Positions 2,850 to 20,355 of a stretch of 32,000 nt of DNA are shown one piece after another. The notes under the pieces were generated by a model that saw nothing but the letters and a program-made list of their open reading frames with translations, was not told where the DNA came from and searched no databases. The position numbers and the translations under genes were made by a program. Positions within the stretch are counted from its first letter, which is position 1. The number at the start of each line of letters is the position of its first letter. The DNA comes from Massilicoli timonensis (GTDB lineage Bacteria > Bacillota_I > Bacilli_A > Erysipelotrichales > Erysipelotrichaceae): positions 1,652,180 through 1,684,179 of the forward strand of contig NZ_LT963434.1 of the NCBI RefSeq assembly GCF_900199515.1. The letters are read 5' to 3'.

Positions 2850-2886
2850 AAATAACAGATTTTATTTTATCAGGGAGGATGTGGCA

Positions 2887-3300: not shown

Positions 3301-3334
3301 GCGAGAGCAAATAACGTAGGAAAGGAGGATGCTC

Positions 3335-5646: not shown

Positions 5647-5772
5647 TCCTATTCCTGCCTGGTCTTAGCGGCCTGACAGGTTTTGTTTTCCCGATGGAAG
5701 GAGGTTTTGATTGAGGATACGCGCGCCTCCCCTGTAACTGAATATTCCCGCAGGTGTTACCCCTGCCCTTAT

Positions 5773-5822
5773 GCCGCCGTCATGCTTTTTGCAGATTTTT
5801 TAGCATGGCGGCGGCTTTTTTC
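5773..5822 (+). terminator. Rho-independent terminator candidate downstream of the coupling-protein gene
   Basis: A 14-bp stem, gccgccgtcatgct (5773-5786), pairs with agcatggcggcggc (5802-5815) with one mismatch/wobble. A T-run follows at 5816-5822. Confidence 0.6.
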
Positions 5823-5880
5823 GTTTCCGGCCAGTCTCGGCCACAACAATAAATTCTATGATATAAGGAGGATTAACTTT

Positions 5881-6039
5881 ATGGCATTTTTCGCAAGTGC
5901 GATTGATACTTTGAAAATTCTGGTAATTGCCCTGGGCGCCGGCCTGGGTGCATGGGGCGTCATCAATCTGCTGGAGGGCTACGGAAATGACAATCCCGGC
6001 GCCAAATCCCAGGGCATGAAGCAGCTTATGGCTAATTAG
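5881..6039 (+). pseudogene. maff2: maff2 5' fragment, truncated by insertion of the nested element
   Basis: AAGGAGG at 5865-5871, then ATG 5881. MAFFASAIDTLKILVIALGAGLGAWGVINLLEGYGNDNPGAKSQGMKQLMA is Maff2-like. The reading frame then ends abruptly as N-stop inside inserted DNA. The missing hydrophobic C-terminus is found at 17598-17661. Confidence 0.8.
6022..6032 (+). repeat. attL core (cagctTatggc) of the nested element
   Basis: Matches cagctCatggc at 17587-17597 (10/11, or 12/14 when extended by aaN upstream). Both copies are in the maff2 reading frame (QLMA). Confidence 0.7.
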
Positions 6040-6104
6040 ATGTGATAAAAGTGGAGAAAGGAAAAGCACAATCCAGACGGAACCGGCGGCCCGGTCAAGA
6101 GATA

Positions 6105-6133
6105 TTGTGGAAACACAAGATTTCTGCTATAAT
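6105..6133 (+). promoter_or_regulatory. Sigma-A-type promoter candidate for the HTH-vat-grpB/cda-GNAT cassette
   Basis: TTGTGG (6105-6110), a 17-nt spacer, then TATAAT (6128-6133) with an upstream TGc extended -10. Confidence 0.55.
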
Positions 6134-6175
6134 GGGTGCAGAACACTTGACGATGGAAAGAGAGGCGGGACGCCT

Positions 6176-6400
6176 ATGCACATTAGCTATCAGCCATTAT
6201 GGAACACCTTGAAAGAGCGTGGCATGAGAAAGGAGGACTTGCGGCTTGCCGCCGGTCTGACAACCAACATGATTGCCAACATGGGCAAGGGCGAGCATAT
6301 CAGCATGAAAACACTTCTGCGTATCTGTGAAACCCTGCATTGTGGCATTTCGGATGTGATTGAATTGGAAGTAGATGGGGCTAATCAGAGTAAAGAATAA
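6176..6400 (+). CDS. Small XRE/Cro-type helix-turn-helix regulator
   Basis: MHISYQPLWNTLKERGMRKEDLRLAAGLTTNMIANMGKGEHISMKTLLRICETLHCGISDVIEL is a typical HTH_26-like fold pattern. The internal ATG 6176 was chosen over the listed 6107 start. Confidence 0.7.
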   Translation: MHISYQPLWNTLKERGMRKEDLRLAAGLTTNMIANMGKGEHISMKTLLRICETLHCGISDVIELEVDGANQSKE

Positions 6401-6428
6401 AACAAAGATCAATGAGGAGGTTATATAT

Positions 6429-7070
6429 ATGCAATACGGGCCAGACCCAAATGCGGTTTATCCGAATGAGGCAATTAAGAGTGTCTGCTTTATCAAAAAT
6501 ATAATTACCCGCCCTAATATTATAGTGGGTGAATATTCTTACTATGATGATATGGATGGTGCGGAGAAATTCGAGGATCATGTAACGCATCATTATGAGT
6601 TCATCGGGGATAAATTGATTATAGGTAAATTTTGTGCTATTGCTAAGGGAATAGAGTTTGTAATGAACGGTGCAAATCATCGGATGTGCAGCGTTACGAC
6701 TTATCCTTTTAATATTATGGGCGGTGGCTGGGAACAGTTTACTCCGGCTTTAGAGGACTTGCCGCTAAAGGGTGACACTGTTGTTGGAAATGATGTTTGG
6801 ATTGGGCAGAATGTTACTGTAATGCCGGGTGTGAATATCGGAGATGGTGCAATTATAGCCGCAAATTCTGTCGTAACAAAAGACATTCCCGCCTATTGTG
6901 TCGCTGGTGGAAATCCTTGCAAAATAATAAAAAAACGCTTTGACGATGAACTCATCTCGTACTTGCAAGAGATAAAATGGTGGGACTGGTCACCAGAAAA
7001 AATATTCGCAAATCTTGAGGCGTTATGTAGCGGAGATTTGGAACAGATACGCAACATAATTGAGGTGTAA
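6429..7070 (+). CDS. vat: Vat-family streptogramin A O-acetyltransferase (xenobiotic acetyltransferase, hexapeptide repeat)
   Basis: GAGGAGG precedes ATG 6429. The 213-aa product has GEYSYYD, KIGKFCAI, MNGANHRM, YPFN, GDTVVGNDVWIGQNVTVMPGVNIGDGAIIAANSVV and KWWDW. It is colinear with VatD/SatA as I remember it. Confidence 0.9.
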   Translation: MQYGPDPNAVYPNEAIKSVCFIKNIITRPNIIVGEYSYYDDMDGAEKFEDHVTHHYEFIGDKLIIGKFCAIAKGIEFVMNGANHRMCSVTTYPFNIMGGGWEQFTPALEDLPLKGDTVVGNDVWIGQNVTVMPGVNIGDGAIIAANSVVTKDIPAYCVAGGNPCKIIKKRFDDELISYLQEIKWWDWSPEKIFANLEALCSGDLEQIRNIIEV

Positions 7071-7106
7071 TTTTGTTGGAATTGATGTTTTAGAGGTGGG
7101 AAATAA

Positions 7107-8006
7107 ATGAGTCAACACATAACAGTAATAGAGTATAGTCCATTATGGAAAAATAAGTATAAAGAAGAATCTTTGCTGATTAGAAATATTCTTGCAGATA
7201 ATTGCATAGCAATTTACCACATTGGAAGTACCTCTGTGGAAGGTTTAGCCGCAAAGCCAATTATTGATATCATGGCAGTTGTCAGAAGTCTTGAGATAGT
7301 AGATACTGTTGCAGAAAAGTTTTCGGATATAGGCTATGAATATCTTGGAGAATTTGGTATAGAAGGTCGGCGTTATCTTCGCAAAGGTGGCGATGAGCGA
7401 ACTCATCAAATTCATATTTTTCAAGCCGATGACTGGAATAATATCGGGCGTCATCTTGCTTTTCGTGACTATATGCGTACCCATGAAAAGGAACGAGAGG
7501 AATATGCAAAAATAAAAATAGAACTTGCAAAAAAATATCCGTATGATATTGATGGATATTGTGATGGGAAAGAAAATTTTGTGCGAGAAATGGAGGAAAT
7601 TGCTATTTCCCAATTTGACGGAACATGGGATAAAATGTATATAGCCGCAAGAAAAGTACAATATGAAAGAAAGCTCTCTCCATTGATCGAAGCAGGAACC
7701 GTTTCTGCCGCACTTCTCACGGAAAAAGGAAATATCTATGTAGGTGTTTGCATTGACACGGCTTGTTCATTGGGAATGTGTGCGGAAAGAAACGCCATCG
7801 CCAACATGATTACAAACGGCGAGTGTACGATCCAGCGTGTTATAGCGATTGGACAAAACGGAAACGCTATCCCACCTTGTGGTGCATGTCGGGAGTTTAT
7901 GACACAACTTGCCCTGGAGAAGTATCACTCTATCCAAATTATGCTGGATTATGAAAATAAAAAAGTTGTTGCATTAGGAGACATTACCTCTAATTGGTGG
8001 ATATAA
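7107..8006 (+). CDS. Fusion protein: N-terminal GrpB (UPF0157, nucleotidyltransferase-fold) domain plus C-terminal cytidine-deaminase-fold domain resembling blasticidin S deaminase
   Basis: The GrpB signature is HIGSTSVEGLAAKPIIDIM..RTHQIHIF. The C-terminal approx. 125 aa carry the zinc motifs CAERNAI and PCGACREF. Overall colinearity is with BSD-type deaminases (VSAALLTEKGNIYVGV..VIAIGQNG). Confidence 0.75.
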   Translation: MSQHITVIEYSPLWKNKYKEESLLIRNILADNCIAIYHIGSTSVEGLAAKPIIDIMAVVRSLEIVDTVAEKFSDIGYEYLGEFGIEGRRYLRKGGDERTHQIHIFQADDWNNIGRHLAFRDYMRTHEKEREEYAKIKIELAKKYPYDIDGYCDGKENFVREMEEIAISQFDGTWDKMYIAARKVQYERKLSPLIEAGTVSAALLTEKGNIYVGVCIDTACSLGMCAERNAIANMITNGECTIQRVIAIGQNGNAIPPCGACREFMTQLALEKYHSIQIMLDYENKKVVALGDITSNWWI

Positions 8007-8018
8007 AGAAGCACGGAT

Positions 8019-8471
8019 ATGAATGAATATAGTTATGTCACATTAAGACAAGTACCAGAATTAAAAGAACCCGCCGCTGCATGGTTTCATGCCAAATGGG
8101 GCGTACCGCAAGAAGCCTATCTTGAATGTATGGAAGCCTATTTGAAAAATAAAACGGAATACGGCTGGTATTTTTGCTTAGACGGCAGGCGTATTATAGG
8201 CGGTCTGGGCGTAATAGATAATGATTTTCACGATAGAAAAGACCTTTCGCCAAATGTATGTGCATTATATACGGAAGAGGATTATCGCTGTCAAGGAATT
8301 GCAGGGCAGTTACTTGATACGGTTGTGAAAGATATGAAATCCAAAGGAATTACTCCTATTTATTTGATTACAGACCATACAAGTTTTTATGAAAGATATG
8401 GCTGGGAATTTTTATGTATGGTTCAGGGGGATGATGAGCCGGACATGACAAGAATGTACATTCACAGATAA
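8019..8471 (+). CDS. GNAT-family N-acetyltransferase (substrate unknown)
   Basis: 150 aa. The acetyl-CoA-binding motif-A-like stretch is RCQGIAGQLLDTVVKDMKSKG, with C-terminal FYERYGWEF. Confidence 0.75.
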   Translation: MNEYSYVTLRQVPELKEPAAAWFHAKWGVPQEAYLECMEAYLKNKTEYGWYFCLDGRRIIGGLGVIDNDFHDRKDLSPNVCALYTEEDYRCQGIAGQLLDTVVKDMKSKGITPIYLITDHTSFYERYGWEFLCMVQGDDEPDMTRMYIHR

Positions 8472-8502
8472 TTATTATAGAAATTAAAGTTAAAAAGGCT
8501 CT

Positions 8503-8545
8503 GCCGTTGTAGGAACACCAGTTCCCACAACGGCAATTTTTATTT
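8503..8545. terminator. Bidirectional rho-independent terminator between convergent genes
   Basis: The stem gccgttgtagg (8503-8513) pairs with cccacaacggc (8524-8534) with one mismatch. A T-run lies downstream (8537-8545) and an A-run upstream (8492-8496). Confidence 0.7.
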
Positions 8546-9361
8546 CCACGGCCTGCGCCGGAAGTTGATCCCGGAATTTTTAATCAGCGGCGATCTTTTG
8601 AACAGCCTTTTCAGGGTCGTCCTTTCCTCGTCTGTGAGCCGCTTGTATTTTAGCTGGAACGCCTTGCAGAAGATTTCCAGAAATTCCTGCACCCTATCCC
8701 CAGTGGATTGCATGGCCTTTCGGACTTCTCTTATCAGTTCATCGGCGGGCGTGGTATCCGGCGCACTCTCCATGTCGTTCTCATGGGCTTTGCGTATATC
8801 GTGAAGGATAGCGTCCCATGTTTTGTGTGTCACATGGCAGAAAAAATCTTCTTCCTCTATCTGACCGGCTTCCAGAATTTTCAAGGAACGGTCTGCGGCA
8901 GCTTCAGGATGTTCTTCCAGTATCATTGCCCGGACAGCGGCCAGCGCACTGTTGATGTCATGGAACCGCATGGTGGCCATTCCGTCCACATAGATTTCTG
9001 CGTCAGCCATCAGCTCCGCAAATTTTTCGTGGGACATCATCTCGCAGAGCAGCCGGGTATTGATCCGTCCGCTTTTCAGAAGCGCCACGGCTTTATCGGT
9101 CAAATGCAATTCAGACAGCGGGGTGTTGATCTGCTCCCGGTTTTCTGTCCGGCAGAACAGATAGTCAATGGACACCTCATAAAAGTCTGCCAGCGTGATA
9201 AGATTGCCGTGATTGATTTCCTTATTTCGGTTTTCTTCATTTTCATAGCTGGCTAAAGCAGATTTTGAAATGCCGGTCTTTTCCGCCAGTTCTTCCAGCT
9301 TCAAGCCCTTTTCCACCCGTAAATCTTTCAAGCGTTCCTGCAAAGAAACATGGTCTTTCAT
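8540..9361 (-). CDS. XRE-family HTH transcriptional regulator with long C-terminal domain (only minus-strand gene in the window)
   Basis: The N-terminus LQERLKDLRVEKGLKLEELAEKTGISKSALASYENEENRNKEINHGNLITLADFYEVSIDYLF is a classic HTH_3. It is 273 aa in total. Confidence 0.8.
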   Translation of the reverse strand: MKDHVSLQERLKDLRVEKGLKLEELAEKTGISKSALASYENEENRNKEINHGNLITLADFYEVSIDYLFCRTENREQINTPLSELHLTDKAVALLKSGRINTRLLCEMMSHEKFAELMADAEIYVDGMATMRFHDINSALAAVRAMILEEHPEAAADRSLKILEAGQIEEEDFFCHVTHKTWDAILHDIRKAHENDMESAPDTTPADELIREVRKAMQSTGDRVQEFLEIFCKAFQLKYKRLTDEERTTLKRLFKRSPLIKNSGINFRRRPWK

Positions 9362-9406
9362 CGGCTTGCCACTCCCTTCCCATGTGGGTTTCGAGCATAT
9401 ATAACC

Positions 9407-9415
9407 ATTATACCA
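9407..9415 (-). promoter_or_regulatory. Extended -10 promoter element for the minus-strand regulator
   Basis: The minus strand reads TGGTATAAT (complement of 9407-9415), about 45 nt upstream of the ATG at 9361. No convincing -35. Confidence 0.5.
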
Positions 9416-9893
9416 TACCGTTCCGAAATCGTGGAAATTTTCGATTTTGGGGCGGTATTCCTACTTTCTGGACATACGGGAAAGGGTTCAAAAATGAGCT
9501 ATGATGTAGTCAGTTCATCGATGGATTATTCCAATCGAATGACCGGCCTGATGGGATATGCTCCCCGGCGATGTAGCGCAACGACCTGCGGCAAGGAGTT
9601 GGAGGAACCTTAACCGCAGCGAGCGTACCAACGGGAACGAAACGCTGCTGTGAGATTCAGGGGCAGGAACGACATCAGGGAAACCCGGCAGAACTGACAC
9701 CAAAACGCTACCCAAACATGACAAAATGGCGGGGCGTATTCTGCCCTGTCCGTGATACTATGGGGCTTTTTAGGGCGGCTCTATGGCCGTATTTTCCTTG
9801 AAAATCGCCCCGAAACATGACACCAGAAACCGCTATCCGCCCATCTCTACCGTTACGGCTGAAATGGGCAGATTTTCTATGATAGGAGGCACC

Positions 9894-10079
9894 ATGCCGA
9901 GAATGAGCAAGAAACGGAAGTTGGAGCTGTCCTTCTTCCTCAATGACCGGGGGCGTGTGGCCTACAACGACCTGTGCCGGAAGTGTCAGCATGAGTGTAA
10001 ACAGAGCTTCCGGGCTGTCGTGATCGACTGCCCCCATTACCTGTCCAAACGAGCCAAGCGAAAGGAGAAAACCGACTAA
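9894..10079 (+). CDS. Small cysteine-rich basic protein (C-x2-C-x3-C-x11-C), probable zinc-binding DNA-binding/accessory protein
   Basis: TAGGAGG at 9883-9889 precedes ATG 9894. The 61-aa product is MPRMSKKRKLELSFFLNDRGRVAYNDLCRKCQHECKQSFRAVVIDCPHY. It resembles the small Cys-rich proteins that open mobilization operons in Clostridial elements (recollection). Confidence 0.55.
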   Translation: MPRMSKKRKLELSFFLNDRGRVAYNDLCRKCQHECKQSFRAVVIDCPHYLSKRAKRKEKTD

Positions 10080-10421
10080 ATGGATTTTGAATATATGACC
10101 GCAGACACCGTTCTGCCACCCTGTATGCCACTTCCCACCGCCATGCTGCGGCTGCCGGTCAGCAGCACCGCAAAGGTCATGTATGCCCGCCTGCTGGACG
10201 CCACCCTTGCGGGAGGTGCGGAGGATACCAACGGGATACTGTTTGTCCGTTTCCCCATTGTGGAGCTGGCAGCGGCCTTGTCCCGCAGCTCCGTGACCGT
10301 CAAGCGTTCCCTGAAAGAATTGGAGGACGCCGGACTGATCCTGCGGGTGCGCCGGGGCGTGGGAGAACCGAACCGCATTTACACGCTGCTTCCCAAAAAG
10401 GAGGATGACCGTGATGAATGA
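10080..10421 (+). CDS. Winged-helix DNA-binding protein (replication-initiator-N-terminal/DnaD-like HTH)
   Basis: The ATG sits directly after the previous stop. AKVMYARLLD...FPIVELAAALSRSSVTVKRSLKELEDAGLILRVRRG is a typical wHTH pattern. Confidence 0.55.
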   Translation: MDFEYMTADTVLPPCMPLPTAMLRLPVSSTAKVMYARLLDATLAGGAEDTNGILFVRFPIVELAAALSRSSVTVKRSLKELEDAGLILRVRRGVGEPNRIYTLLPKKEDDRDE

Positions 10422-10713
10422 AAAGCTGGAAAAGCTCAACCAGCAGATTGCCCAAGGCGAAGCCAAACTGCGGCGGGCGCAGCACGAAGAAAAGATACTG
10501 GCACACCAGATAAAGCAGCTTACCCGGAAGGAACGGACGCACCGGCTCTGCACCAGAGGGGCTATGCTGGAAAGTTTCCTGATAAGACCGGAAGTGCTGA
10601 CGGACGATGATGTGATGGACATTCTGAAACAGGCATTTTCCCAAACTGGTATGAAGGAAGCTGTTGCGGAAAGCGTGAAAGGTCGGGTAGCTGGGAAACC
10701 TCTTACGGAGTAA
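10414..10713 (+). CDS. DUF3847-like coiled-coil protein (relaxase accessory candidate)
   Basis: MNEKLEKLNQQIAQGEAKLRRAQHEEKILAHQIKQLTRKERTHRLCTRGAMLESFL matches my memory of DUF3847, which usually precedes MobA/MobL relaxases. ATG 10414 is preferred because AAAGGAGG ends at 10404. Confidence 0.6.
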   Translation: MNEKLEKLNQQIAQGEAKLRRAQHEEKILAHQIKQLTRKERTHRLCTRGAMLESFLIRPEVLTDDDVMDILKQAFSQTGMKEAVAESVKGRVAGKPLTE

Positions 10714-10755
10714 GGGCGCAACTATACACCGGTCGAGCCGGTGCGTTGCGCCCTG
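10714..10755 (+). promoter_or_regulatory. Candidate oriT of the nested element (compound inverted repeat ending in TGCGCCCTG)
   Basis: gggcgcaac (10714-10722) pairs perfectly with gttgcgccc (10745-10753). The inner stem is caccgg (10727-10732) with ccggtg (10738-10743). The 3' arm plus flank reads GTTGCGCCCTG, close to the GTGCGCCCT nic core I recall for MOBQ (RSF1010/R1162-type) oriTs. Confidence 0.45.
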
Positions 10756-10957
10756 CCGGGGGCTTCCTGCGGAAAGCGGATAATTGCCAGCACACTTGCG
10801 GCTGCTTCCAATCATCACAGGGGACGCTGCGCTTCCCCTGCGCTAGCTGCCGCCAGCTACCCCTTTATGGACTTGCCGTCCGGGAACACCTTGCACTACA
10901 AGCTGTTCCTGTCCGACAAGTTCTATAATTTTATGACGGGCAAAATGGAAAGTATGC

Positions 10958-10985
10958 TTGACATTTCAAACAGCTGTGCTATACT
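10958..10985 (+). promoter_or_regulatory. Strong sigma-A-type promoter for the HTH/membrane-protein cassette
   Basis: TTGACA (10958-10963), a 16-nt spacer, then TATACT (10980-10985) preceded by TGc (extended -10). It lies 43 nt upstream of ATG 11028. Confidence 0.65.
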
Positions 10986-11027
10986 AAGAACACGGAAAGC
11001 AGACTTTCCATTAGGAAGGAGGCTCGC

Positions 11028-11225
11028 ATGAAAAATCGACTGGAAGAACTCCGCAAACAACGAGGAATCAAGCAAGAAGAATTGGCAAATGTCTTGGAAG
11101 TATCACGACAAACAATTGGCTCTTTAGAAAATGGACGCTACAATCCGTCTATTCAGTTGGCGTTCAAAATTGCTCGATACTTCAATATGACGATTGAGGA
11201 GATTTTTATTTACGAGGAGGATTGA
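11028..11225 (+). CDS. Small XRE-family HTH regulator (65 aa)
   Basis: AGGAAGGAGG RBS. MKNRLEELRKQRGIKQEELANVLEVSRQTIGSLENGRYNPSIQLAFKIARYFNMTIEEIF is the canonical short HTH_3 protein that pairs with a downstream membrane protein in Firmicutes. Confidence 0.85.
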   Translation: MKNRLEELRKQRGIKQEELANVLEVSRQTIGSLENGRYNPSIQLAFKIARYFNMTIEEIFIYEED

Positions 11226-11227
11226 TT

Positions 11228-11644
11228 ATGAAAAAAGGGTTATTGATTTTAATGGTAGTTGCTGGAATGATTATTTTGCTGGGAGGATTGCTAACATACG
11301 GTTTGGGAATAAATGAGATCGTTCCTGTGCCGCGTCCTGACTTGATCGTAGTAGGCACATCCCTCATTGGAATTTCACTAATTGTATCTGGTGCGTGCGA
11401 TTTGCTTGGCAAGAAAACCAAGGAAATGCAAATAGAAGAAAATGATGAGAGAAATATAGCACTCGGCAATGCCGCTATGGCAAGTGGCTTCAAAGTAATG
11501 AATGTCACGATTTCTGTTTCCCTCTTTGCTTTGATTTTTACTGGATATATGACAGTAGTTCCTTGTTTCACTATTATTGGAGCCTTTGCGATTGGTCAAC
11601 TGGCCTTTATTGTGCGACTCTGGCATTTGCACAAAACCATGTAA
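11228..11644 (+). CDS. Four-TM membrane protein (DUF2178-like partner of the small HTH)
   Basis: GAGGAGGA lies 6 nt upstream of ATG 11228. There are four hydrophobic segments, with a charged loop KKTKEMQIEENDERNIALGN between TM2 and TM3. Confidence 0.7.
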   Translation: MKKGLLILMVVAGMIILLGGLLTYGLGINEIVPVPRPDLIVVGTSLIGISLIVSGACDLLGKKTKEMQIEENDERNIALGNAAMASGFKVMNVTISVSLFALIFTGYMTVVPCFTIIGAFAIGQLAFIVRLWHLHKTM

Positions 11645-11686
11645 ACATATTTTGAAATATCCGCCGCCCATCAGCGGTACCATCGA

Positions 11687-11720
11687 GCAGGAAATCAGAA
11701 ACGGTTTCCTGCTTTTCTTA
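11687..11720 (+). terminator. Rho-independent terminator after the HTH/membrane cassette
   Basis: The stem gcaggaaa (11687-11694) pairs with tttcctgc (11705-11712). It is followed by ttttctta. Confidence 0.65.
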
Positions 11721-11783
11721 TGCTCAAAATGAGGTGGCAAAGCACCACCCCATCCAATCAGTCATAGAAAGGAGGAAGCCGTT

Positions 11784-13373
11784 ATGCCCTGTCCCCACCA
11801 TGATATAAAAATTGTCCAGCGCAGCAACCGCCAGTCAGCCGTAGCCGCCGCAGCTTACCAGAGCGGCGAACGGCTGTTTTCCGAGTACGACCAGAAGCAG
11901 AAATACTATTCCGAGAAACGAGGGATCGTCCACACAGAAATCATGCTGCCGCCCCACGCCCCGCCGGAGTACGCAGACCGCAACACATTGTGGAACGCCG
12001 CCGAAGCCATAGAAAAACAATGGAACTCCCAGCTTGCCCGGAGGATCGTGCTTGCCATACCGAGGGAAATTCCCCCGGAAAAACACGCCGACCTGATTCG
12101 GGATTATTGCCGGGAGTTTTTCGTTTCCAAAGGCATGATTGCCGATTTTGCCATTCACGATAAGGGGGACGGGAATCCCCACGCCCACATCCTGCTGACC
12201 ATGCGGGCAATGGACGAAATCGGGAAATGGCTTCCCAAGAGCCGGAAGGTTTATGACCTTGACGAGAACGGCGAGCGTATCCGGCTCCCGTCCGGAAACT
12301 GGAAAAGCCACAAGGAGGACACCGTAGACTGGAACGACCAGAAGTATGGCGAGATATGGCGGCAGGGCTGGGCGGCTGTCGCTAACCGCTATCTGGAAGC
12401 CAATGACCGCCCGGAGCGCCTTGACCTTCGTTCCTATGAACGGCAGGGGCTTGATAAAATCCCCACCGTCCACATGGGGCCAGCGGTCAGCCAGATGGAG
12501 AAACGAGGGATACAGACCAACATCGGCAACCTGAACCGGGATATTACCGCCGCCAACCGGCTCATGCAGTCCATCCGTCAGATGGTGCGCCACCTGAAAG
12601 GCTGGATTGCAGACCTGAAGGAGAAAAAGGCCGCCCTGCTGGAAGCCTTGCAGGAAGCGAAGGAACCCACCCTGCCGGAACTGCTGGGCAAATATCTGGA
12701 TTTGCGTCGGGAGGAACGCACTGGCTGGACAAGCAAAGGCCAGCTCAAAGGCACTGTGAACGACTTCAACAAGGTTATGGACGCTATCCGCTATCTGCGG
12801 GAAAAGGAGCTGTCCACCGTGGAGAGTTTGGATGCCTATCTGGATACCGTCAGCGGGCAGGCCGTTTCCATCCGGGCGGAGATGAAGCCGAAGGAAAAGC
12901 GCATGAAGGAGATCGACACCCTGCTTTCCCATATCGCCAACTTTGAAGCCCATAAGCCGGTTCATGCGGAATATGCCGCCATCCGGTTTAAGAAGCCAAA
13001 GGAACAGTTTGCCGCCGCCCATCGGGACGAGCTGGACGCCTACAATGCCGCTGTCCGCTATTTCAAGGTGCATTTGGAGGGAACCAAGTATAGCACCAAA
13101 AAGCTGAACGAGGAACGGACGCAGCTTGCCGGAGAGGTGGCCGAGTACGGGGAACGCCTGTCAGCGGTGCAGGAGGATGTGAAAATTCTCCGGGATGTGC
13201 GCCACTGGCTTAATCAGGTGCTTCCGTCCGAGCAGTACCGCCAGACTGCCGAGCCGGGCAAGAAACCGTCTATCCAGCAGGCAGTCAAAGGCCGGGCGCA
13301 GCGTATCCGGGAGGAACAGGCCGAGAAACGCCAGCAGCCCCGCACAGAGAAAAAACAGGATATGGAACTTTAA
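11784..13373 (+). CDS. MobA/MobL-family (MOBQ-type) relaxase
   Basis: AAAGGAGGA RBS. The N-terminus has IVQRSNRQSAVAAAAYQSGERL (catalytic Tyr codon 11856-11858) and the His motif DGNPHAHILLTMR. The C-terminal half is a long coiled coil. Confidence 0.9.
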   Translation: MPCPHHDIKIVQRSNRQSAVAAAAYQSGERLFSEYDQKQKYYSEKRGIVHTEIMLPPHAPPEYADRNTLWNAAEAIEKQWNSQLARRIVLAIPREIPPEKHADLIRDYCREFFVSKGMIADFAIHDKGDGNPHAHILLTMRAMDEIGKWLPKSRKVYDLDENGERIRLPSGNWKSHKEDTVDWNDQKYGEIWRQGWAAVANRYLEANDRPERLDLRSYERQGLDKIPTVHMGPAVSQMEKRGIQTNIGNLNRDITAANRLMQSIRQMVRHLKGWIADLKEKKAALLEALQEAKEPTLPELLGKYLDLRREERTGWTSKGQLKGTVNDFNKVMDAIRYLREKELSTVESLDAYLDTVSGQAVSIRAEMKPKEKRMKEIDTLLSHIANFEAHKPVHAEYAAIRFKKPKEQFAAAHRDELDAYNAAVRYFKVHLEGTKYSTKKLNEERTQLAGEVAEYGERLSAVQEDVKILRDVRHWLNQVLPSEQYRQTAEPGKKPSIQQAVKGRAQRIREEQAEKRQQPRTEKKQDMEL

Positions 13374-13436
13374 CAGGCGCTTGCCATTTTCTTTTTGAGA
13401 ATGACAGGCGCTTTTCTTATTTTCAGGAGGATTTAG

Positions 13437-14072
13437 TTGAATGTATTTGAAGCTGTCAAGCAGTCTGTTACCACCCGGCAGGCTGCCGAGCATTTCGGAA
13501 TCCGGGTGGGACGGAACGGGATGTGCGTCTGTCCCTTCCATGCCGACAATAACCCAAGTATGAAGGTTGACCGGCGCTTTCACTGTTTCGGCTGTCAGGC
13601 CGACGGGGATGTAATCGACTTTGTTTCCCGTCTGGAAGCTGTCAGCCCCAAGGAAGCTGCCCTTATGCTGGCGCAGGCGTTTTCCATCCCCTATGAGGAC
13701 AAGGAGCCGCCCCGCCACAGGAAGCCCCGGCAGGAACCCCCGGAACAGCGGTTCCGCCGTATGGAACGGTACTGCTTCCGGGTGCTATGCGACTATCGAA
13801 ACCTGCTGCGCCGCTGGAAACGGGACTATGCCCCCAACACACCAGACGAGGATTTCCACCCTTTGTTTGTGGAAGCCCTGCAAAAGCAGGACTATGTGGA
13901 CTATCTGCTGGATGTGCTTCTCTCCCCTGACATGGAGGAACGGGCAGCCTTTATCATCGACTGTGGAAAGGAAGTGAGCAATCTTGAAAGACGAATGGCA
14001 GAGCTTGCCGCCGGAGATACGGCAGGCCGCAGAACAGACCATGCAAGAAGCACCGCCGCCCCGGAGCGTTGA
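13437..14072 (+). CDS. CHC2 zinc-finger (DnaG-primase N-terminal-like) protein
   Basis: AGGAGGA at 13425-13431, then TTG 13437. CVCPFHADNNPSMKVDRRFHCFGCQADGDVIDFV is the CHC2 zinc-finger signature. No TOPRIM domain is evident in the 211 aa. Confidence 0.8.
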   Translation: MNVFEAVKQSVTTRQAAEHFGIRVGRNGMCVCPFHADNNPSMKVDRRFHCFGCQADGDVIDFVSRLEAVSPKEAALMLAQAFSIPYEDKEPPRHRKPRQEPPEQRFRRMERYCFRVLCDYRNLLRRWKRDYAPNTPDEDFHPLFVEALQKQDYVDYLLDVLLSPDMEERAAFIIDCGKEVSNLERRMAELAAGDTAGRRTDHARSTAAPER

Positions 14073-14085
14073 GGAAGTCAAAGCC

Positions 14086-15378
14086 ATGCTGGAAAGCACC
14101 GAGAAAGGGGGCGTCCGCAACAGTATCCGAAACTGCCTGACCGTCTTTCAGAATGATCCGCTGCTTTCCGGGGCAATCGCCAAAAACCTCTTGACCGAGC
14201 GCACCGACATCATCAAGCCCATCGGCTACCACCGTACCGGCACCGCCATCACGGACACGGATATGAATTATCTGCTTCTGTATCTGGAAGAAACTTATGG
14301 GCTGACCAGCGAAAAGAAGATTGCCGCAGCCATCGGGATCGTTGCCAACGAAAACGGCTATCACCCCATCCGTGACTACCTGAACGGCCTTTCATGGGAC
14401 GGAACCGAGCGTATCCGTACCTGCCTGCACCACTTTTTAGGAGCCGACAGCGACCAGTACACCTATGAAGCCCTGCGGCTGTTCCTGCTGGGAGCCATCC
14501 ACCGGGCATTTCATCCCGGCTGCAAATTTGAAGTCATGCTTTGTCTGGTGGGCGGTCAGGGAGCCGGGAAATCCACCTTTTTCCGGCTGCTGGCCGTGAA
14601 AGACGAGTGGTTTTCCGATGACCTTCGCAAGCTGGACGATGACAATGTGTACCGCAAGCTGCAAGGCCACTGGATCATTGAGATGTCGGAGATGATCGCC
14701 ACCGCAAACGCCAAGAGCATTGAGGAAATCAAGTCTTTTTTGAGCCGACAGAAGGAGGTCTATAAAATCCCATACGAAACCCACCCGGAGGACAGGCTGC
14801 GGCAATGCGTGTTCGGCGGCACTTCCAATGCCCTGGACTTTCTGCCCCTTGACCGTTCCGGCAACCGGCGCTTTCTGCCGGTCATGGTGTACCCGGAACA
14901 GGCGGAAGTTCACATTTTGGACGATGAAGCCGCTTCCAGAGCCTACATGGAGCAGCTATGGGCGGAAGCCATGACCATTTACCGCAGCGGGGATTTTAAG
15001 CTGTCTTTCAGCCCCGAAATGGTGCGCTATCTCAAAGAACACCAGCGGGATTTCATGCCGGAGGACACCAAGGCTGGGATGATCCAAGCCTACCTTGACC
15101 GCTATACCGGCAGTATGGTGTGTTCCAAACAGCTTTTCCGGGAAGCCCTGAACCACCCCTTTGACGAGCCGAAACAATGGGAAATCCGGGAGGTCAACGA
15201 CATTATGAACCATTGTGTCACAGGCTGGCACTACTTTTCCAATCCCCGGATGTTCCCGGAATACGGCAGGCAGAAGGGCTGGGAGAGTGAAACCCCGGCA
15301 ACGGACACCAGCAACGGAGCCGAAAAAATCCCGGAGGGATTTGTGGAGGTCACAGAACAGATGGAGCTTCCTTTCTGA
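14086..15378 (+). CDS. VirE-family (virulence-associated protein E) P-loop NTPase, primase/helicase-associated
   Basis: Walker A is LVGGQGAGKSTFFRLL and Walker-B-like is HWIIEMSEM. The start is uncertain: the ORF opens at 13984, ATG 14041 is possible, and ATG 14086 is preferred because GAGGAAG lies 8 nt upstream. Confidence 0.8.
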   Translation: MLESTEKGGVRNSIRNCLTVFQNDPLLSGAIAKNLLTERTDIIKPIGYHRTGTAITDTDMNYLLLYLEETYGLTSEKKIAAAIGIVANENGYHPIRDYLNGLSWDGTERIRTCLHHFLGADSDQYTYEALRLFLLGAIHRAFHPGCKFEVMLCLVGGQGAGKSTFFRLLAVKDEWFSDDLRKLDDDNVYRKLQGHWIIEMSEMIATANAKSIEEIKSFLSRQKEVYKIPYETHPEDRLRQCVFGGTSNALDFLPLDRSGNRRFLPVMVYPEQAEVHILDDEAASRAYMEQLWAEAMTIYRSGDFKLSFSPEMVRYLKEHQRDFMPEDTKAGMIQAYLDRYTGSMVCSKQLFREALNHPFDEPKQWEIREVNDIMNHCVTGWHYFSNPRMFPEYGRQKGWESETPATDTSNGAEKIPEGFVEVTEQMELPF

Positions 15379-15390
15379 AAATCCTACCCC

Positions 15391-15595
15391 GTTGCCGACT
15401 TTGTTGCACGCCTGTTGCCGGGCTGGTTGCCGGGGAAAGCCCCGTAACTGCAGGCTTTTCCCCCTATCAGCAACCAAAGCAACAGAAAAATAAAAGAAAA
15501 TATAAATTGTAACCAAACCGCCAGACAGAGAAGGTTTTGAGGTTTTTTGAAGCCCGTTGCCGGACTTCGTTGCCGACCTTCTCCTTGTCTGGCTA
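15391..15595 (+). repeat. Iteron cluster + AT-rich tract + long inverted repeat (origin-of-replication-like region)
   Basis: GTTGCCG occurs at 15391, 15414, 15426, 15556 and 15569, with the variant GTTGCAC at 15403. Spacing in the first block is 11-12 bp. Inverted GCAAC lies at 15470 and 15479. The A/T-rich tract is about 15484-15515. The inverted repeat is gccagacagagaaggt (15520-15535) against accttctccttgtctggc (15576-15593). Confidence 0.6.
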
Positions 15596-15619
15596 TTCTA
15601 TTATGGAGGATAACTGCCT

Positions 15620-15817
15620 ATGGCAAAAACGAAAACAGAGATTCATGTTACCACAGTTTTTGACGGCGAGCTGGACGCAGCGGATGTCTTTGTGAGCCTG
15701 ATTGCCCAAAAATATGGGCAGAATACCGGTAAGGAAAATCTTGCGAAAACGCAAGATTTAGGATATAATAAAGACGAGGTTCAGAAGAACCGTGTTCCGT
15801 CTGGATTGTGCGGGTAA
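15620..15817 (+). CDS. Small hypothetical protein upstream of the serine recombinase (possible recombination directionality factor)
   Basis: GGAGGA lies 9 nt upstream of ATG 15620. The ORF is 65 codons and ends 6 nt before the recombinase start. No family recognised. Confidence 0.45.
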   Translation: MAKTKTEIHVTTVFDGELDAADVFVSLIAQKYGQNTGKENLAKTQDLGYNKDEVQKNRVPSGLCG

Positions 15818-15823
15818 ACGGTT

Positions 15824-17488
15824 ATGATGAACGGATACGACTACACAGGCATGGACGCAATTCTGGCGGGCAGCTTCCGGGCGGCCATCTATTGCAGGCT
15901 TTCCAAAGACGATGACCTTGACGGGGAGAGCGCCAGTATTGCCAACCAGCGGGATATGCTGGAAAGCTACTGCGAAAAGCAGGGATGGGAGGTTGTGGCA
16001 GTCTATCAGGATGATGGCTACACGGGGCTGAACATGGAGCGCCCCGACCTGAAACGGATGTTAAAGGCCATCGAGCGCAGGCAGATAAACCTTGTGATAA
16101 CGAAAGATTTATCGAGATTGGGTCGAAATTACTTGCAAACCGGCACACTGATCGAGGACTTCTTCCCCCGTCACGGCGTCCGCTATATCGCCATGAATGA
16201 CGGTATCGACACCATGCGGGACAACAACGACATTGCGCCGTTCAAGAACATCCTGAACGAGATGTACAGCAAGGATATTTCAAAGAAGGTACATTCCTCG
16301 TATCTTCTGAAAGCCCAGCAAGGCCAGTTTACCGGCTGTGTGGCTCCCTTTGGGTATCGGAAAGACCCGGAGGACAAAAACCACCTGTTGGTGGACGAGG
16401 AAACCGCCCCCATTGTCCGGCAAATCTTCCTTTGGGCGCTGGAAGGACACGGCCCCAACTTCATCCGGCGCAGGCTGGAAGAACAGAAAGTGCCTTGCCC
16501 TACATGGTGGAACCGGGAACGGGGCTTCCGCAATGTCCGCACCAAATGGGAAAAGAAAGACCCGGAAAACGGGCGGTATATGTGGGATTTCTCCGTGATA
16601 AAGGACATCCTGATGAATCCCGTTTATACCGGGGCGATAGCTTCCCAAAAGAAGGACTACCGCTTCAAAATCGGCACCATTGGGGAGAAGAAGCCGCAGG
16701 ACTGGATTGTGGTGGAGGAACGGCACGAACCGTTGATTGACAGCAAAAGTTTTGCCATCGTGCAGGACAAGCTAAAATCCCGCCAGCGCCCCCGGCAGGA
16801 CGGGGAAACCAGCCTGTTTGCCGGGCTTATCAAGTGCGGCGAATGTGGTAAGTCGCTGACCATCCGCACCACCCACGCCAAGCACCCGCAGCAGATTTAC
16901 GCCTGTAAGACCTATGGGGCGTTCGGCAAGAACCATTGCACCCAGCACCGGGTGGAGTACGACACCCTTTACCACCTTGTCCTGAACAAAATCCGGGAGT
17001 GCGCCAAGGCTGCCCTGACCGATGGGGAAGCCATTGCCGGGAAGCTGACCAACACCTGCGAAGCCGAACAGAAAGGCCAGCGGGAAGCGTTGGAGCGTTC
17101 CCTGACAAAAGACGAGGAACGGATTGAGGTGCTGGAAAAGATGGTGCTGCGGCTCTATGAGGACATGGTTGCCGGGCGGATCAGCGAAGCCAACTTCAAT
17201 CTCATGCTGGACAAAACGCAGAAAGAACAGGCCGAGTTGAAAGAGCGGGTTGCACAGGGGCGCAAGAAGCTGGCTGATGAAATGCGGCTGGCGATGGACG
17301 CCAAACAATGGGTGGACGCCATTCAGGAATATGCCGACATCACGGAGCTGGACGCAGCCATCCTAAACCGCCTGATTAAAGAAATCGTTGTCCATGAACA
17401 CATCGACAGCGATAAGACACGACACATTTCTATCGAAATTCACTTCAATCTCAAACCCATCCCGGAGGTGGAACAGGTCAAGGGCTGA
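15824..17488 (+). CDS. Large serine recombinase (resolvase/invertase N-terminal domain + recombinase domain + zinc ribbon + coiled coil)
   Basis: AAIYCRLSKDDD carries the catalytic Ser codon at 15902-15904. Further motifs are SIANQRDMLESYC, DLSRLGRNY and the zinc ribbon CGECGKSL..YACKTYGAFGKNHC. The 554-aa product is the last gene before the right junction. Confidence 0.92.
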   Translation: MMNGYDYTGMDAILAGSFRAAIYCRLSKDDDLDGESASIANQRDMLESYCEKQGWEVVAVYQDDGYTGLNMERPDLKRMLKAIERRQINLVITKDLSRLGRNYLQTGTLIEDFFPRHGVRYIAMNDGIDTMRDNNDIAPFKNILNEMYSKDISKKVHSSYLLKAQQGQFTGCVAPFGYRKDPEDKNHLLVDEETAPIVRQIFLWALEGHGPNFIRRRLEEQKVPCPTWWNRERGFRNVRTKWEKKDPENGRYMWDFSVIKDILMNPVYTGAIASQKKDYRFKIGTIGEKKPQDWIVVEERHEPLIDSKSFAIVQDKLKSRQRPRQDGETSLFAGLIKCGECGKSLTIRTTHAKHPQQIYACKTYGAFGKNHCTQHRVEYDTLYHLVLNKIRECAKAALTDGEAIAGKLTNTCEAEQKGQREALERSLTKDEERIEVLEKMVLRLYEDMVAGRISEANFNLMLDKTQKEQAELKERVAQGRKKLADEMRLAMDAKQWVDAIQEYADITELDAAILNRLIKEIVVHEHIDSDKTRHISIEIHFNLKPIPEVEQVKG

Positions 17489-17586
17489 CCTGTCCACGCC
17501 GGAGCGGTTCTAAAACAATTCCATATATTTTTTGACACGCCGCCGCCCGCCATCGAGCAAGGTTTTACTCCTATTTAGGGATAAAA

Positions 17587-17597
17587 CAGCTCATGGC
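17587..17597 (+). repeat. attR core (cagctCatggc) of the nested element
   Basis: Partner of 6022-6032 and in frame with the maff2 3' remnant. Confidence 0.7.
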
Positions 17598-17661
17598 GGG
17601 CGGAGGTATCGCCCTGGTGGGTGCCACGCTGATTCCGCTGCTCTCCGGCCTGTTCGGTTAA
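17587..17661 (+). pseudogene. maff2: maff2 3' fragment (C-terminal transmembrane tail) separated from its 5' part by the nested element
   Basis: Translates as QLMAGGGIALVGATLIPLLSGLFG-stop with no start codon or RBS of its own. It continues exactly where the 5' fragment (..KQLMA) breaks off. Confidence 0.8.
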
Positions 17662-17667
17662 TGACGG

Positions 17668-18531
17668 ATGGGCAGTCTGTTTGAATGGATAACAGACTGG
17701 ATTAAAGAGGGCTTAATTGAAGCGATTACAGGACAATATACCGGTATTTTTGAGTCGGTCAACAACCAGGTTTCGGATGTGGCTTCGCAGGTAGGCCAGA
17801 CGCCGCAGGGGTGGAATGGCGGCGTGTTCAGTATGATCCAGAATCTTTCTGAAACCGTCGTCATTCCCATTGCGGGAATCATCCTGACATTTGTGCTGGT
17901 CTATGAGCTGATTCAGATGATTCTTGAAAAAAACAACATGCACGATTTTGATACCTTCAACATTTTCAAGTGGATTTTCAAGACCTTTGTTGCCACATAT
18001 CTGCTTACCAACTGTTTCACTATCGTTATGGCGGTATTCGATGTCGCCCAAAATGTGGTAAGTCAGAGCGCCGGCGTGATAAACGGAAGTCTGGATGTCA
18101 CCGCTGCGCTGTCTGATCTGGAAACGCAGCTTGAAGCAATGGGAATGTGGGAGCTGATCGGTCTGTGGCTGGAAACCAATATCATTAACCTGTGCATGTG
18201 GGTATTGTCTATTGTAATCTTTGTCATTGTGTATGGCCGTATGATTGAAATATATCTCACGGTCAGCCTGGCACCCATACCGTTTTCCACGATGGCAAAC
18301 CGTGAATGGGGGCAGATGGGAACCAATTACCTGCGTTCCCTGTTTGCTTTAGGTTTTCAGGGCTTTTTGATTCTGGTCTGTGTTGCGATTTACGCGGTGC
18401 TGGTCCAGTCAATCCCTTCTTCCGGCGATATTCACGGAGCAATCTGGGGTACGGCGGGCTATACGGTCCTGCTGGCCTTTGCCCTGTTTAAGACAGGCTC
18501 GCTATCCAAAAGTATATTTAACTCGCATTAG
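17668..18531 (+). CDS. VirB6/TrbL-like polytopic T4SS membrane protein (CD1112-type)
   Basis: 287 aa with about 6 hydrophobic segments. It sits immediately after maff2, as in related Firmicutes ICEs. The family call rests on context and topology. Confidence 0.7.
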   Translation: MGSLFEWITDWIKEGLIEAITGQYTGIFESVNNQVSDVASQVGQTPQGWNGGVFSMIQNLSETVVIPIAGIILTFVLVYELIQMILEKNNMHDFDTFNIFKWIFKTFVATYLLTNCFTIVMAVFDVAQNVVSQSAGVINGSLDVTAALSDLETQLEAMGMWELIGLWLETNIINLCMWVLSIVIFVIVYGRMIEIYLTVSLAPIPFSTMANREWGQMGTNYLRSLFALGFQGFLILVCVAIYAVLVQSIPSSGDIHGAIWGTAGYTVLLAFALFKTGSLSKSIFNSH

Positions 18532-18572
18532 TGCGTAACCAATCTATATTTTCGACAAGGAGGATTTTTCAT

Positions 18573-19025
18573 ATGAGTAAAACCAACAATGAAACCATGC
18601 AGCCGGAGGTACAGGTGCCGGAGGCGTCCGAGGGCCTGAAGCTGGATGTCCGTGTGCGTCCTATCGCGCCGATGGGGAACCTGCTGGCCTTTGCCAATGT
18701 GACAATCGGCGGGTGTTTTAAGATCGACGGCTTCCGTATCTGTTCCGGTGAAAAGGGGCTGTATGTCAATATGCCTTCCACCCAGGACGGGAAAGGGAAC
18801 TGGAAAGATGTGTGCTGGCCTGTAACGGCGGATTTCCGCAGACAGCTCAACGATGCGCTGATTGAAGGGTACGGCCAGGCGATTGAAAATTTGCAGGCCA
18901 CGCTTGAAGCGACCAAAGGCGCCGCGGACAGACCTTCGCTGTCCGGTGCGCTCAAAGAAAATGCCGGGAAAGTGAAAGCTCAGCCGGCGAAAGCCGCACC
19001 TGCAAAAAATGAGCAGGCCCGTTGA
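18573..19025 (+). CDS. SpoVG-family nucleic-acid-binding protein with extra C-terminal tail
   Basis: AAGGAGG precedes ATG 18573. LDVRVRPIAPMGNLLAFANVTIGGCFKIDGFRICSGEKGLYVNMPSTQDGKGNWKDVCWPV is colinear with SpoVG. An extra approx. 50-aa tail contains RPSLSGAL. Confidence 0.8.
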   Translation: MSKTNNETMQPEVQVPEASEGLKLDVRVRPIAPMGNLLAFANVTIGGCFKIDGFRICSGEKGLYVNMPSTQDGKGNWKDVCWPVTADFRRQLNDALIEGYGQAIENLQATLEATKGAADRPSLSGALKENAGKVKAQPAKAAPAKNEQAR

Positions 19026-19582: not shown

Positions 19583-19586
19583 CCGA

Positions 19587-20312: not shown

Positions 20313-20355
20313 CGGTACCGGGATTTTGAGATTACGGTGAATGGAGGTGAATCAG

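Follow-up and report, generated by a model that had tools for sequence, protein, structure and literature searches.

The maff2 locus and its empty counterpart

The window, as we call the whole 32,000-nucleotide stretch analysed here (Massilicoli timonensis assembly GCF_900199515.1, contig NZ_LT963434.1, forward-strand positions 1,652,180 to 1,684,179), carries the conjugation genes of an integrative and conjugative element (ICE), and one of these genes, maff2, is split in two by 11,565 bp of other DNA (6024-17588). A preliminary description of this DNA had taken the block for an integrative and mobilizable element (IME) nested in the ICE. It had also called the host Clostridia-type, which needs correcting, since M. 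timonensis, whose records match every protein of the window exactly, belongs to the Erysipelotrichaceae and so stands outside the Clostridia. The features on either side of the insertion are the following.

3802 to 5646, + strand: ICE coupling protein, VirD4/TraG type (Pfam T4SS-DNA_transf, TraG-D_C, TrwB_AAD_bind); last intact ICE gene before the insertion
5881 to 6023, + strand: maff2 5' fragment, codons 1-47 plus the CA crossover; the reading frame continues into the IME to a stop at 6037-6039
17589 to 17661, + strand: maff2 3' fragment, codons 48-71 plus stop, no start codon; same as in the intact maff2 of contig L004
17668 to 18531, + strand: ICE TrbL_2/VirB6-like gene (Pfam TrbL_2, E 1e-54); first ICE gene after the insertion

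The open reading frame (ORF) that begins at ATG 5881 encodes 52 residues, MAFF...GAKSQGMKQLMAN, up to the stop at 6037-6039; in full it translates as MAFFASAIDTLKILVIALGAGLGAWGVINLLEGYGNDNPGAKSQGMKQLMAN. Maff2 is broken after residue 51 of this ORF and its remainder lies in frame downstream of the insert, where 17587-17661 translates as QLMAGGGIALVGATLIPLLSGLFG followed by a stop and has no start codon. Both junctions carry one direct repeat, CAGCTTATGGC at 6022-6032 and CAGCTCATGGC at 17587-17597, and these are the sole two matches to CAGCTYATGGC in the window, where shuffling predicts 0.06 by chance. When 5881-6032 is joined in silico to 17598-17661 the result is 71 codons, and any join point inside the repeat gives a 71-aa protein. 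This joined protein matches Pfam PF12750 (Maff2) over positions 1-70 of 70 with an E value of 7e-41, and at least 1000 public contigs, some of them from Flavonifractor plautii, encode it without change. The cut gene with its startless tail, the repeat common to both junctions and the restored ORF of about 71 codons, all proposed in the preliminary description, are thus borne out. The 52-aa stump itself occurs on 293 contigs under the NCBI label "Maff2 family mobile element protein" (WP_102268981.1). Because annotation pipelines report this stump as a complete Maff2 family protein, nested elements of such a kind are invisible in annotation.

Looking up the exact TrbL_2 protein (17668-18531) in public contigs gave nine contexts, and in seven of them the right end of the IME lies upstream of the gene. 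The metagenome contig L004 has the order coupling protein, intact 71-aa Maff2, TrbL_2, with no insert. Its coupling-protein gene is the same 614-aa gene as in the window, the product of its maff2 is identical to the protein joined in silico, and 7 bp separate the end of maff2 from trbL_2, compared with 11.6 kb in the window. L004 760-3930 aligns to window 2866-6032 with 96.2% nucleotide identity and L004 3909-8863 to window 17577-22530 with 97.2%; the two alignments share 22 bp of L004 that span both junctions. The 11,565-bp block is thus present in some copies of this ICE and absent from another, and the uninterrupted maff2 (the empty attB) that was sought in related ICEs has been found between flanks that are 96-97% identical.

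The host element is a Tn1549-family ICE. Its genes run DUF3801, VirD4, maff2, TrbL_2, SpoVG, MT-A70, PrgI, VirB4-like, PAPS reductase-like, M23+NlpC/P60 hydrolase, DUF4315, CD1107-like and SpaA/TED adhesin, and those of the type IV secretion system (T4SS: PrgI, VirB4-like, M23+NlpC/P60, DUF4315, CD1107-like) extend to about 28.2 kb. This fits the backbone order given for the family in Table 3 of PMC12084326, DUF3801(pcfB)-virD4-maff2-virB6(TrbL_2)-virB3(PrgI)-virB4-NlpC/P60 hydrolase-DUF4315, with SpoVG, MT-A70, a 241-aa ORF and PAPS_reduct interspersed; the window holds neither the relaxase nor the integrase of the ICE. The SpoVG-like and MT-A70 methyltransferase genes (18531-20312) and the PAPS-reductase-like gene (23164-24168) are absent from the core Tn1549 table of that paper. 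The 241-aa ORF, which lies among the T4SS genes, has a weak, sub-threshold match to DUF3848.

Attachment sites and the point of exchange

The ends of the insert were compared at 87 related loci, with attL taken from 34 of them, and resolve into the following sites.

5997 to 6051: attL, comprising the B half-site of maff2, the CA crossover at 6022-6023 and the IME P' arm GCTTATGGCTAATTAGATGTGATAAAAG (from the alignment of attB of L004, attL, attR and the reconstructed attP)
17562 to 17610: attR, comprising the IME P arm GTTTTACTCCTATTTAGGGATAAAA, the CA crossover at 17587-17588 and the B' half-site of maff2
17539 to 17553: conserved 15-mer GCCGCCGCCCGCCAT, an inverted copy of the maff2 half-site ATGGCGGGCGGCGGC (inverted repeat I4)

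Position -1 is G in attL, where it comes from maff2, and A in attR, where it comes from the IME. One subfamily has CAGTT in attL and CAGCT in attR, L058 has CAGGT against CAGCT, and the secondary sites outside maff2 retain ...ATAAAA-CA and diverge from the third base onward (CATAT, CACCT, CAATT, CAGAT, CAGGT). From these differences the aligned sequences show that the exchanged dinucleotide is the CA at 6022-6023 and 17587-17588, inside CAGCT, and that the insertion is precise. Its target is the part of maff2 that encodes ..GMK-QL-MAGGG.., a site that related elements occupy in dozens of genera. The 3' boundary of the IME lies 98 bp beyond the recombinase stop.

The reconstructed attP is symmetric around the CA, with the arms TTATGGCTAATTA (6027-6039) and TATTTAGGGATAA (17572-17584) complementary at 15 of 25 positions and an outer inverted pair, ATAAAAG (6045-6051) and GTTTTAC (17562-17568), offset by 3 nt; attB contains a small palindrome, CATGA-AGCAGC-TCATG, about the same CA centre. 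The inverted similarity between 6045-6056 and 17568-17578, at first proposed as the attP arms, is out of register with the crossover and gives way to these symmetric arms. Variants of the P-arm palindrome are partly compensatory (TCC/GGG to ACC/GGT), but the most frequent one, ACC/GGG, disrupts the pair, and for this reason we claim no covariation-based structure. The junction of an excised circle would be expected to read ...GGGATAAAA-CA-GCTTATGGCTAATTAG..., which can also be written ...CCTATTTAGGGATAAAA-CA-GCTTATGGCTAATTAGATG..., and the repaired attB would read ...GGGCATGAAG-CA-GCTCATGGCGGGCGG....

Within the right end of the IME, conservation is highest in the 15-mer, which lies 34-35 nt inside the end. 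Anchored counting over the 87 loci finds it exact in 74 and with at most one mismatch in all of them, whereas the P arm next to it occurs in 15 variants. Reverse-complemented, the 15-mer reads ATGGCGGGCGGCGGC, the maff2 consensus just right of the crossover (codons MAGGG), and in 55 of the 87 loci the flank itself agrees with this at no fewer than 13 of 15 positions. In the integrated state the 15-mer pairs with 17593-17607, giving a long imperfect palindrome from 17539 to 17607, directly after the recombinase gene; in the RNA fold computed for 17489-17640 (-59.9 kcal/mol, z -3.67) the 15-mer is base-paired with the maff2 flank. The reconstructed circle offers no pairing partner, only ATGGC being common with the P' arm. 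As an inverted copy of the half-site across the crossover, the 15-mer can thus form its GC-rich hairpin only while the element sits in maff2, and cannot do so in the excised circle or at most secondary sites. It is tempting, though doubtful, to speculate that this lets the element sense its integration state, either by retroregulation of the recombinase transcript resembling that of lambda sib, or by insulation of the ICE T4SS genes from read-through, or else by an accessory site that the recombinase binds and by which the direction of recombination is set. Whether one thinks of a role in RNA (an integrated-only terminator, an insulator, a stability element) or in DNA (the accessory recombinase site), these are guesses.

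Gene content and mobility of the inserted element

The insert consists of cargo on the left and a backbone of regulatory, transfer, replication and recombination genes on the right.

6177 to 6400, + strand: HTH_26 (Cro/C1-type) regulator, first IME gene (Pfam HTH_26, E 4e-13)
6375 to 7070, + strand: Vat-family streptogramin A O-acetyltransferase, cargo (NCBIfam NF000311 Vat_ABCDEFH, 347 bits, cut-off 300; Pfam Hexapep)
7107 to 8006, + strand: fusion of GrpB and a cytidine-deaminase-family domain, cargo (Pfam GrpB, E 8e-52, and dCMP_cyt_deam_1; PDB 2NRK GrpB and cytidine deaminases)
8019 to 8471, + strand: GNAT N-acetyltransferase, cargo (Pfam Acetyltransf_1; PDB 9Y12, E 5e-19)
8501 to 8536: strong 16-bp terminator-like hairpin between the convergent cargo genes and regulator gene (terminator scan; inverted repeat I3)
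8540 to 9361, - strand: 273-aa HTH_3 repressor-like regulator, divergent from the transfer and replication genes (Pfam HTH_3/HTH_19; PHROG transcriptional regulator/repressor)
10080 to 10421, + strand: winged-helix RepA_N/DnaD-like protein, candidate replication initiator (weak Pfam RepA_N; PHROG DnaD-like helicase loader/replication initiation)
10405 to 10713, + strand: DUF3847 protein, accessory to MOBQ2 IME relaxases (Pfam PF12958, E 9e-32)
10712 to 10760, + strand: candidate origin of transfer (oriT), a nested hairpin directly after the DUF3847 gene, AGGGCGCAAC-TATA-CACCGG-TCGAG-CCGGTG-C-GTTGCGCCCT (inverted repeat I9)
10741 to 11644, + strand: three accessory ORFs of 96 aa, 65 aa (HTH_3) and 140 aa (Pfam HTH_3 for the 65-aa ORF, none for the other two)
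11784 to 13373, + strand: MobQ (MOBQ2) relaxase (Pfam MobA_MobL, PF03389, E 5.5e-92; NCBIfam NF041496 MobQ, 242 bits, cut-off 200)
13437 to 14072, + strand: CHC2 zinc-finger primase-like protein (Pfam Zn_ribbon_DnaG; PHROG DNA primase)
13984 to 15378, + strand: VapE/D5-type helicase (Pfam VapE-like_dom, E 1.7e-69; PHROG DNA helicase, E 6e-125)
15620 to 15817, + strand: conserved 65-aa protein just upstream of the recombinase (in 77 of 80 genome loci, 72-100% identity)
15824 to 17488, + strand: large serine recombinase, TnpX-like, 554 aa (Pfam Resolvase, Recombinase, Zn_ribbon_recom and DUF4368)

Domain searches agree with the first description of the interval, which had it end with a large serine recombinase and carry a relaxase and a replication module but neither a coupling protein nor a T4SS: none of the ORFs in 6024-17588, all of which were scanned with Pfam, has a T4SS, VirB4 or coupling-protein domain. 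The recombinase is of the TnpX type, as it has all four Pfam domains and its nearest solved structure is the TnpX catalytic domain of Tn4451 (2MHC, E 6.6e-30). With a recombinase and att sites of its own, a relaxase with a predicted oriT, and no VirB4 or coupling protein, the block has the make-up of an IME, and with a PF12958 gene near its PF03389 relaxase it has that of a MOBQ2 IME. All ORFs of the backbone are intact.

The hairpin at 10712-10760 is the candidate oriT. As DNA it folds at -18.9 kcal/mol (z -2.76), and it is retained in three backbone subfamilies with two compensatory pairs (CG to UA and AU to GC). Its 3' arm terminates in GCGCCCT, which resembles the nick region of MOBQ plasmids such as RSF1010 and pTi and, by analogy, would place the nick there.

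A recombinase scan of one genome per species returned 362 relatives, of which the best 80, 84-100% identical, were compared; they are spread over dozens of genera in the families Lachnospiraceae, Oscillospiraceae and Erysipelotrichaceae. In about 66 of these 80 loci the C-terminus of Maff2 follows about 95 bp after the recombinase stop, and the backbone is common to all loci whose sequence reaches far enough, in elements of 10.0-11.6 kb. Some loci have backbones 92-96% identical to that of the window over more than 90% of their length, yet their ICE flanks reach only about 65% identity, and this over less than half of the flank length. One 10,411-bp element stands in eight loci (8 of the L025-L033 set) from eight genome assemblies with differing flanks. 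The identical recombinase protein occurs in ten different contexts, where the maff2 3' sequences beside it are of six kinds and the T4SS genes stand in several orders, which indicates that the element moves independently. At a non-ICE chromosomal site in L144 (from 4764 onward), the identical IME right end lies beside DctPQM TRAP-transporter genes, at a target, CAGCTCATGGCGGAGG, that mimics attB.

Taken together, the empty site in L004, this independent mobility and the preference for one site make it very probable that 6024-17588 is an IME inserted by its own TnpX-like recombinase into the maff2 gene of a Tn1549-family ICE, in keeping with the nested arrangement first proposed. The recombinase would excise a circle by recombining attL with attR, rebuilding the intact 71-codon maff2. 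The relaxase, together with the DUF3847 protein, would nick at the hairpin oriT 10712-10760, and the single strand would exit by way of a coupling protein and T4SS supplied by the host ICE or by another Tn1549-type ICE. The primase/helicase module would copy the circle, and in the recipient the recombinase would integrate it into any maff2 with a CA-GCTCATGGCGGGCGG site.

While the IME is integrated, the ICE probably transfers at a reduced rate or with a delay until it leaves, as Maff2 is split and 11.6 kb with a hairpin terminator lies inside the operon. The stump retains only the first of the two transmembrane helices listed for Maff2 in PMC12084326, and the 11.6 kb, including the hairpin 8501-8536, now stands between the coupling-protein gene and virB6/prgI/virB4. 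Any read-through would meet the terminator-like hairpin and the attR hairpin in its path, and no promoter-like site was found on the + strand between 15769 and trbL_2.

Several observations weigh against parts of this interpretation. About 10 of the 80 loci lie at sites other than maff2, so that the specificity is strong but not absolute. The expected attP junction, searched as the 27-nt pattern GGGATAAAACAGCTYATGGCTAATTAG, has no match in JGI metagenome contigs or IMG/VR, and none of the ten contexts of the exact recombinase protein shows a circular permutation, all being integrated. As most copies of the element are in ENA gut assemblies, which lay outside the pattern search, the zero count is not evidence against excision; excision is deduced, with no excised form found, from the empty site and the many independent insertions. 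The oriT and the nick site are predictions, the covariation coming from three subfamilies only, and both the T4SS named as the mobilizing one and a need for Maff2 in ICE transfer are presumptions. Transconjugants have been obtained in which ICESp2905 still held its two IMEs, one of them in maff2 (PMC5704250), so that ICE transfer may not need excision.

The missing circular form would suit a fixed, immobile remnant, an old insertion inherited only as part of the ICE, and so would the several metagenome contigs in which the same ICE carries the insertion (L001-L003, L005, L006, L008, L009). Such a remnant is nevertheless very improbable: its backbone ORFs are intact, the same ICE occurs without it in L004, the identical recombinase stands beside at least six maff2 alleles and one non-ICE site, and near-identical backbones reside in ICEs that are only about 65% identical.

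A repressor, a primase, a VapE helicase and an integrase make up a gene set typical of phage satellites, and the CI-like regulator, primase and VapE protein of this element match phage families strongly (PHROG DNA helicase, E 6e-125). One could therefore imagine a phage satellite or phage-inducible island that spreads by way of a phage and not through a conjugation pore. Yet the element encodes a complete MobQ relaxase together with its DUF3847 companion, and its oriT-like hairpin is conserved; Pfam and PHROG searches reveal in it no genes for a terminase, for capsid remodelling or for packaging; the gene that it targets belongs to the conjugation module of ICEs; and replication modules are known for IMEs in maff2 and traG (PMC5704250, Table 1). 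A satellite is very improbable.

Some genes of the IME deserve a few words on their own. The listed ORF of the HTH_26 regulator begins at GTG 6107, and ATG 6177 agrees with the start in relatives; L010 has a 74-aa homologue, and identity across related loci is 62-94%. Similarity of related elements to the window backbone starts at about 8501, and the hairpin at 8501-8536 marks the border between cargo and backbone. The 273-aa HTH_3 regulator has a match to the NCBIfam RstR-family repressor that falls under the cut-off and is followed in the backbone by an 87-aa ORF; for the winged-helix protein, RepA_N is recorded in the L010 homologue. The three accessory ORFs, which lie between the DUF3847 and relaxase genes, are present in some relatives only, many being without them. 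The VapE helicase probably starts later than annotated, since its relatives have 430-449 aa. The 65-aa protein has no Pfam match above the curated cut-off (DUF4062, 17 bits against 24.7) and no PHROG family; that it is a directionality factor is a guess. An Rfam search of the whole window found no family at gathering score.

The fusion of GrpB, a protein with a nucleotidyltransferase fold, to a deaminase is unusual; it lies between vat and the GNAT gene, and at least 1000 contigs encode the identical protein, whose substrate may be a nucleoside antibiotic. An identity as blasticidin-S deaminase was rejected, with an E value of only 4e-4 compared with 1e-10 for ordinary cytidine deaminases. The cargo slot, between attL and the HTH_3 regulator, holds other resistance-like genes in L013, L021, L024/L058 and L010/L038: an Rmt-like 16S rRNA methyltransferase (240 bits, cut-off 250), a class D beta-lactamase-like gene, an Lnu-like lincosamide nucleotidyltransferase, and a metallo-beta-lactamase (MBL)-fold hydrolase with a SnoaL-like protein. 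As all of these score under the curated cut-offs, the function of this cargo is unproven.

Relation to known elements and maff2 as a target

TnpX, the nearest relative of the recombinase among solved structures and an enzyme that works without a directionality factor, belongs to Tn4451/Tn4453 of Clostridium, which are small mobilizable elements with a resistance gene and a circular form. Tn4451 has a MOBV relaxase (TnpZ), a GA crossover, a looser choice of target and tnpX at its left end; the window element, in contrast, has a MOBQ2 relaxase, a CA crossover, a maff2 target and its recombinase at the right end.

Serine-recombinase IMEs that occupy maff2 (at two distinct sites), traG or snf2 in ICEs of the Tn5252 type were described in 2017 (PMC5357655, PMC5704250), so that the streptococcal precedents named in the preliminary description are real. 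For IMESp2907, in maff2 of ICESp2905, independent movement has been shown, with excision and mobilization in trans (PMC5704250), and in the streptococcal model IME excision restores the ICE gene. That ICE transfer may depend on IME excision or on read-through, as the preliminary description suggested, is a proposal already made for streptococci. IMESp2907 and IME_ScoC232_maff2_site1 likewise disrupt maff2, carry a replication module and depend on an ICE pore (PMC5357655, PMC5704250). By description they differ in their host (Streptococcus), in residing in Tn5252-superfamily ICEs, in having a replisome organizer/DnaC in place of primase/VapE, and in their cargo. A 2025 study described 29 Faecalibacterium IMEs that sit inside Tn1549-family ICEs ("matryoshkas"; PMC12084326), and genomes of this genus also hold relatives of the window element (L037, L064-L066). 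According to that paper, all Faecalibacterium MOBQ2 IMEs have a DUF3847 gene next to the relaxase and co-evolving with it, so that the window element resembles them in its PF03389 relaxase, its PF12958 protein and its nesting in a Tn1549-family ICE. The main text of PMC12084326, with its four MOBQ2 families, names no IME integrated in maff2.

A close parallel is IME_Rho_tet of 2026 (FirmiData IME_RhoA2_183_maff2-1), found in MAFF2 ORFs in 45% of resolvable cases (PMC12904643). It too is about 10.7 kb long, with co-oriented genes, resistance cargo at the 5' end, the recombinase last, terminal inverted repeats and a very wide host range. By description its cargo is tet(W)/tet(32) where the window element has vat, and its backbone is a relaxase, MobC and a methyltransferase where the window element has MobQ, DUF3847 and primase/VapE. 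In tet(W)-linked junctions, in which a maff2 fragment lies about 655 bp upstream of tet(W), the gene breaks between ...GGCGCAAA and TGCTCATG, equivalent to window 6004-6007. Three such left junctions (L104 6741-7522, L112 2239-3025, L137 7434-8215) yield truncated products ending in "...NPGANAHV" (P0019, P0021, P0023). A TetW query, validated at 100% on IMG/VR tet(W), found no TetW-like gene in the window element or the 80 related loci, and in IMG/VR it gave 42 loci with left junctions only and no complete IME_Rho_tet with its recombinase. That the window element is a tet-less member of the IME_Rho_tet family, with which it has in common a terminal recombinase, a boundary about 100 bp past its stop, insertion in MAFF2 ORFs of gut Bacillota ICEs and antimicrobial resistance cargo at the left end (PMC12904643), is hardly credible when the tet(W)-linked junctions fall 16-18 bp upstream of the CA, 0 of 80 related loci have a ribosomal protection protein gene, the described backbone has a relaxase, MobC and an S-adenosylmethionine (SAM) methyltransferase with primase/VapE unmentioned, and the 3' boundary comes 81-90 bp after the stop and not 98 bp. 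The family of the window element is distinct from IME_Rho_tet, separated by junction site, cargo and described backbone.

A third kind of interruption affects the same maff2 allele. L093 10135-10530 is a group I intron of 396 bp, with a full-model match to Rfam RF00028 (63.2 bits, gathering score 50; E 1e-15), and the intron is also present in L092, L094-L096 and L155-L163. It lies between ...CAGGG and GATGAAACAGCT, 7 nt upstream of the IME crossover, at the equivalent of window 6014/6015. The 45-aa "Maff2" that it causes is the commonest truncated form of the allele (3312 blocks of the protein collection), with no IME involved; in nine of the ten contexts shown, from closely related ICEs, trbL_2 comes right after the intron and an IME is absent. 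A spliced transcript would still encode an intact Maff2, but in the DNA the intron takes the place of most of the attB B half-site and might thereby protect the ICE from the IME. With the breakpoints of the IME, of the tet(W)-linked junctions and of the intron, maff2 is interrupted at three or more separate positions inside 20 bp, which makes it a hot spot.

The same CA is also used by a sister IME (L099 3239-13403) whose recombinase is 73% identical and whose attL reads ATGAAA-CA-TATCATGGCGAATTTGATG. It carries a primase and DUF5906 helicase, a 409-aa protein that replaces MobQ, and a DEAD/HNH helicase-nuclease cargo. A second Maff2 fragment on that contig adjoins a SAM methyltransferase, which suggests stacked insertions.

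The concept of an IME in maff2, including repair of the ICE when the IME departs, is already published, and maff2-targeting IMEs of gut Bacillota appeared in 2025-2026 (PMC12084326, PMC12904643), so that the novelty once suggested for this case and its cargo is modest; what is new here is a different site in maff2 and a different backbone and cargo. The locus, in a gut isolate of the Erysipelotrichaceae, offers a fully delimited example of an IME within an ICE, with an empty site and a crossover defined at the base-pair level. The element is one of a very widespread family whose variable left-end slot repeatedly carries resistance-type genes, vat here and rmt-, lnu- and class-D-beta-lactamase-like genes elsewhere. 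This family parallels IME_Rho_tet as a vehicle of resistance genes among gut commensals, through a second site in the same 71-codon gene.

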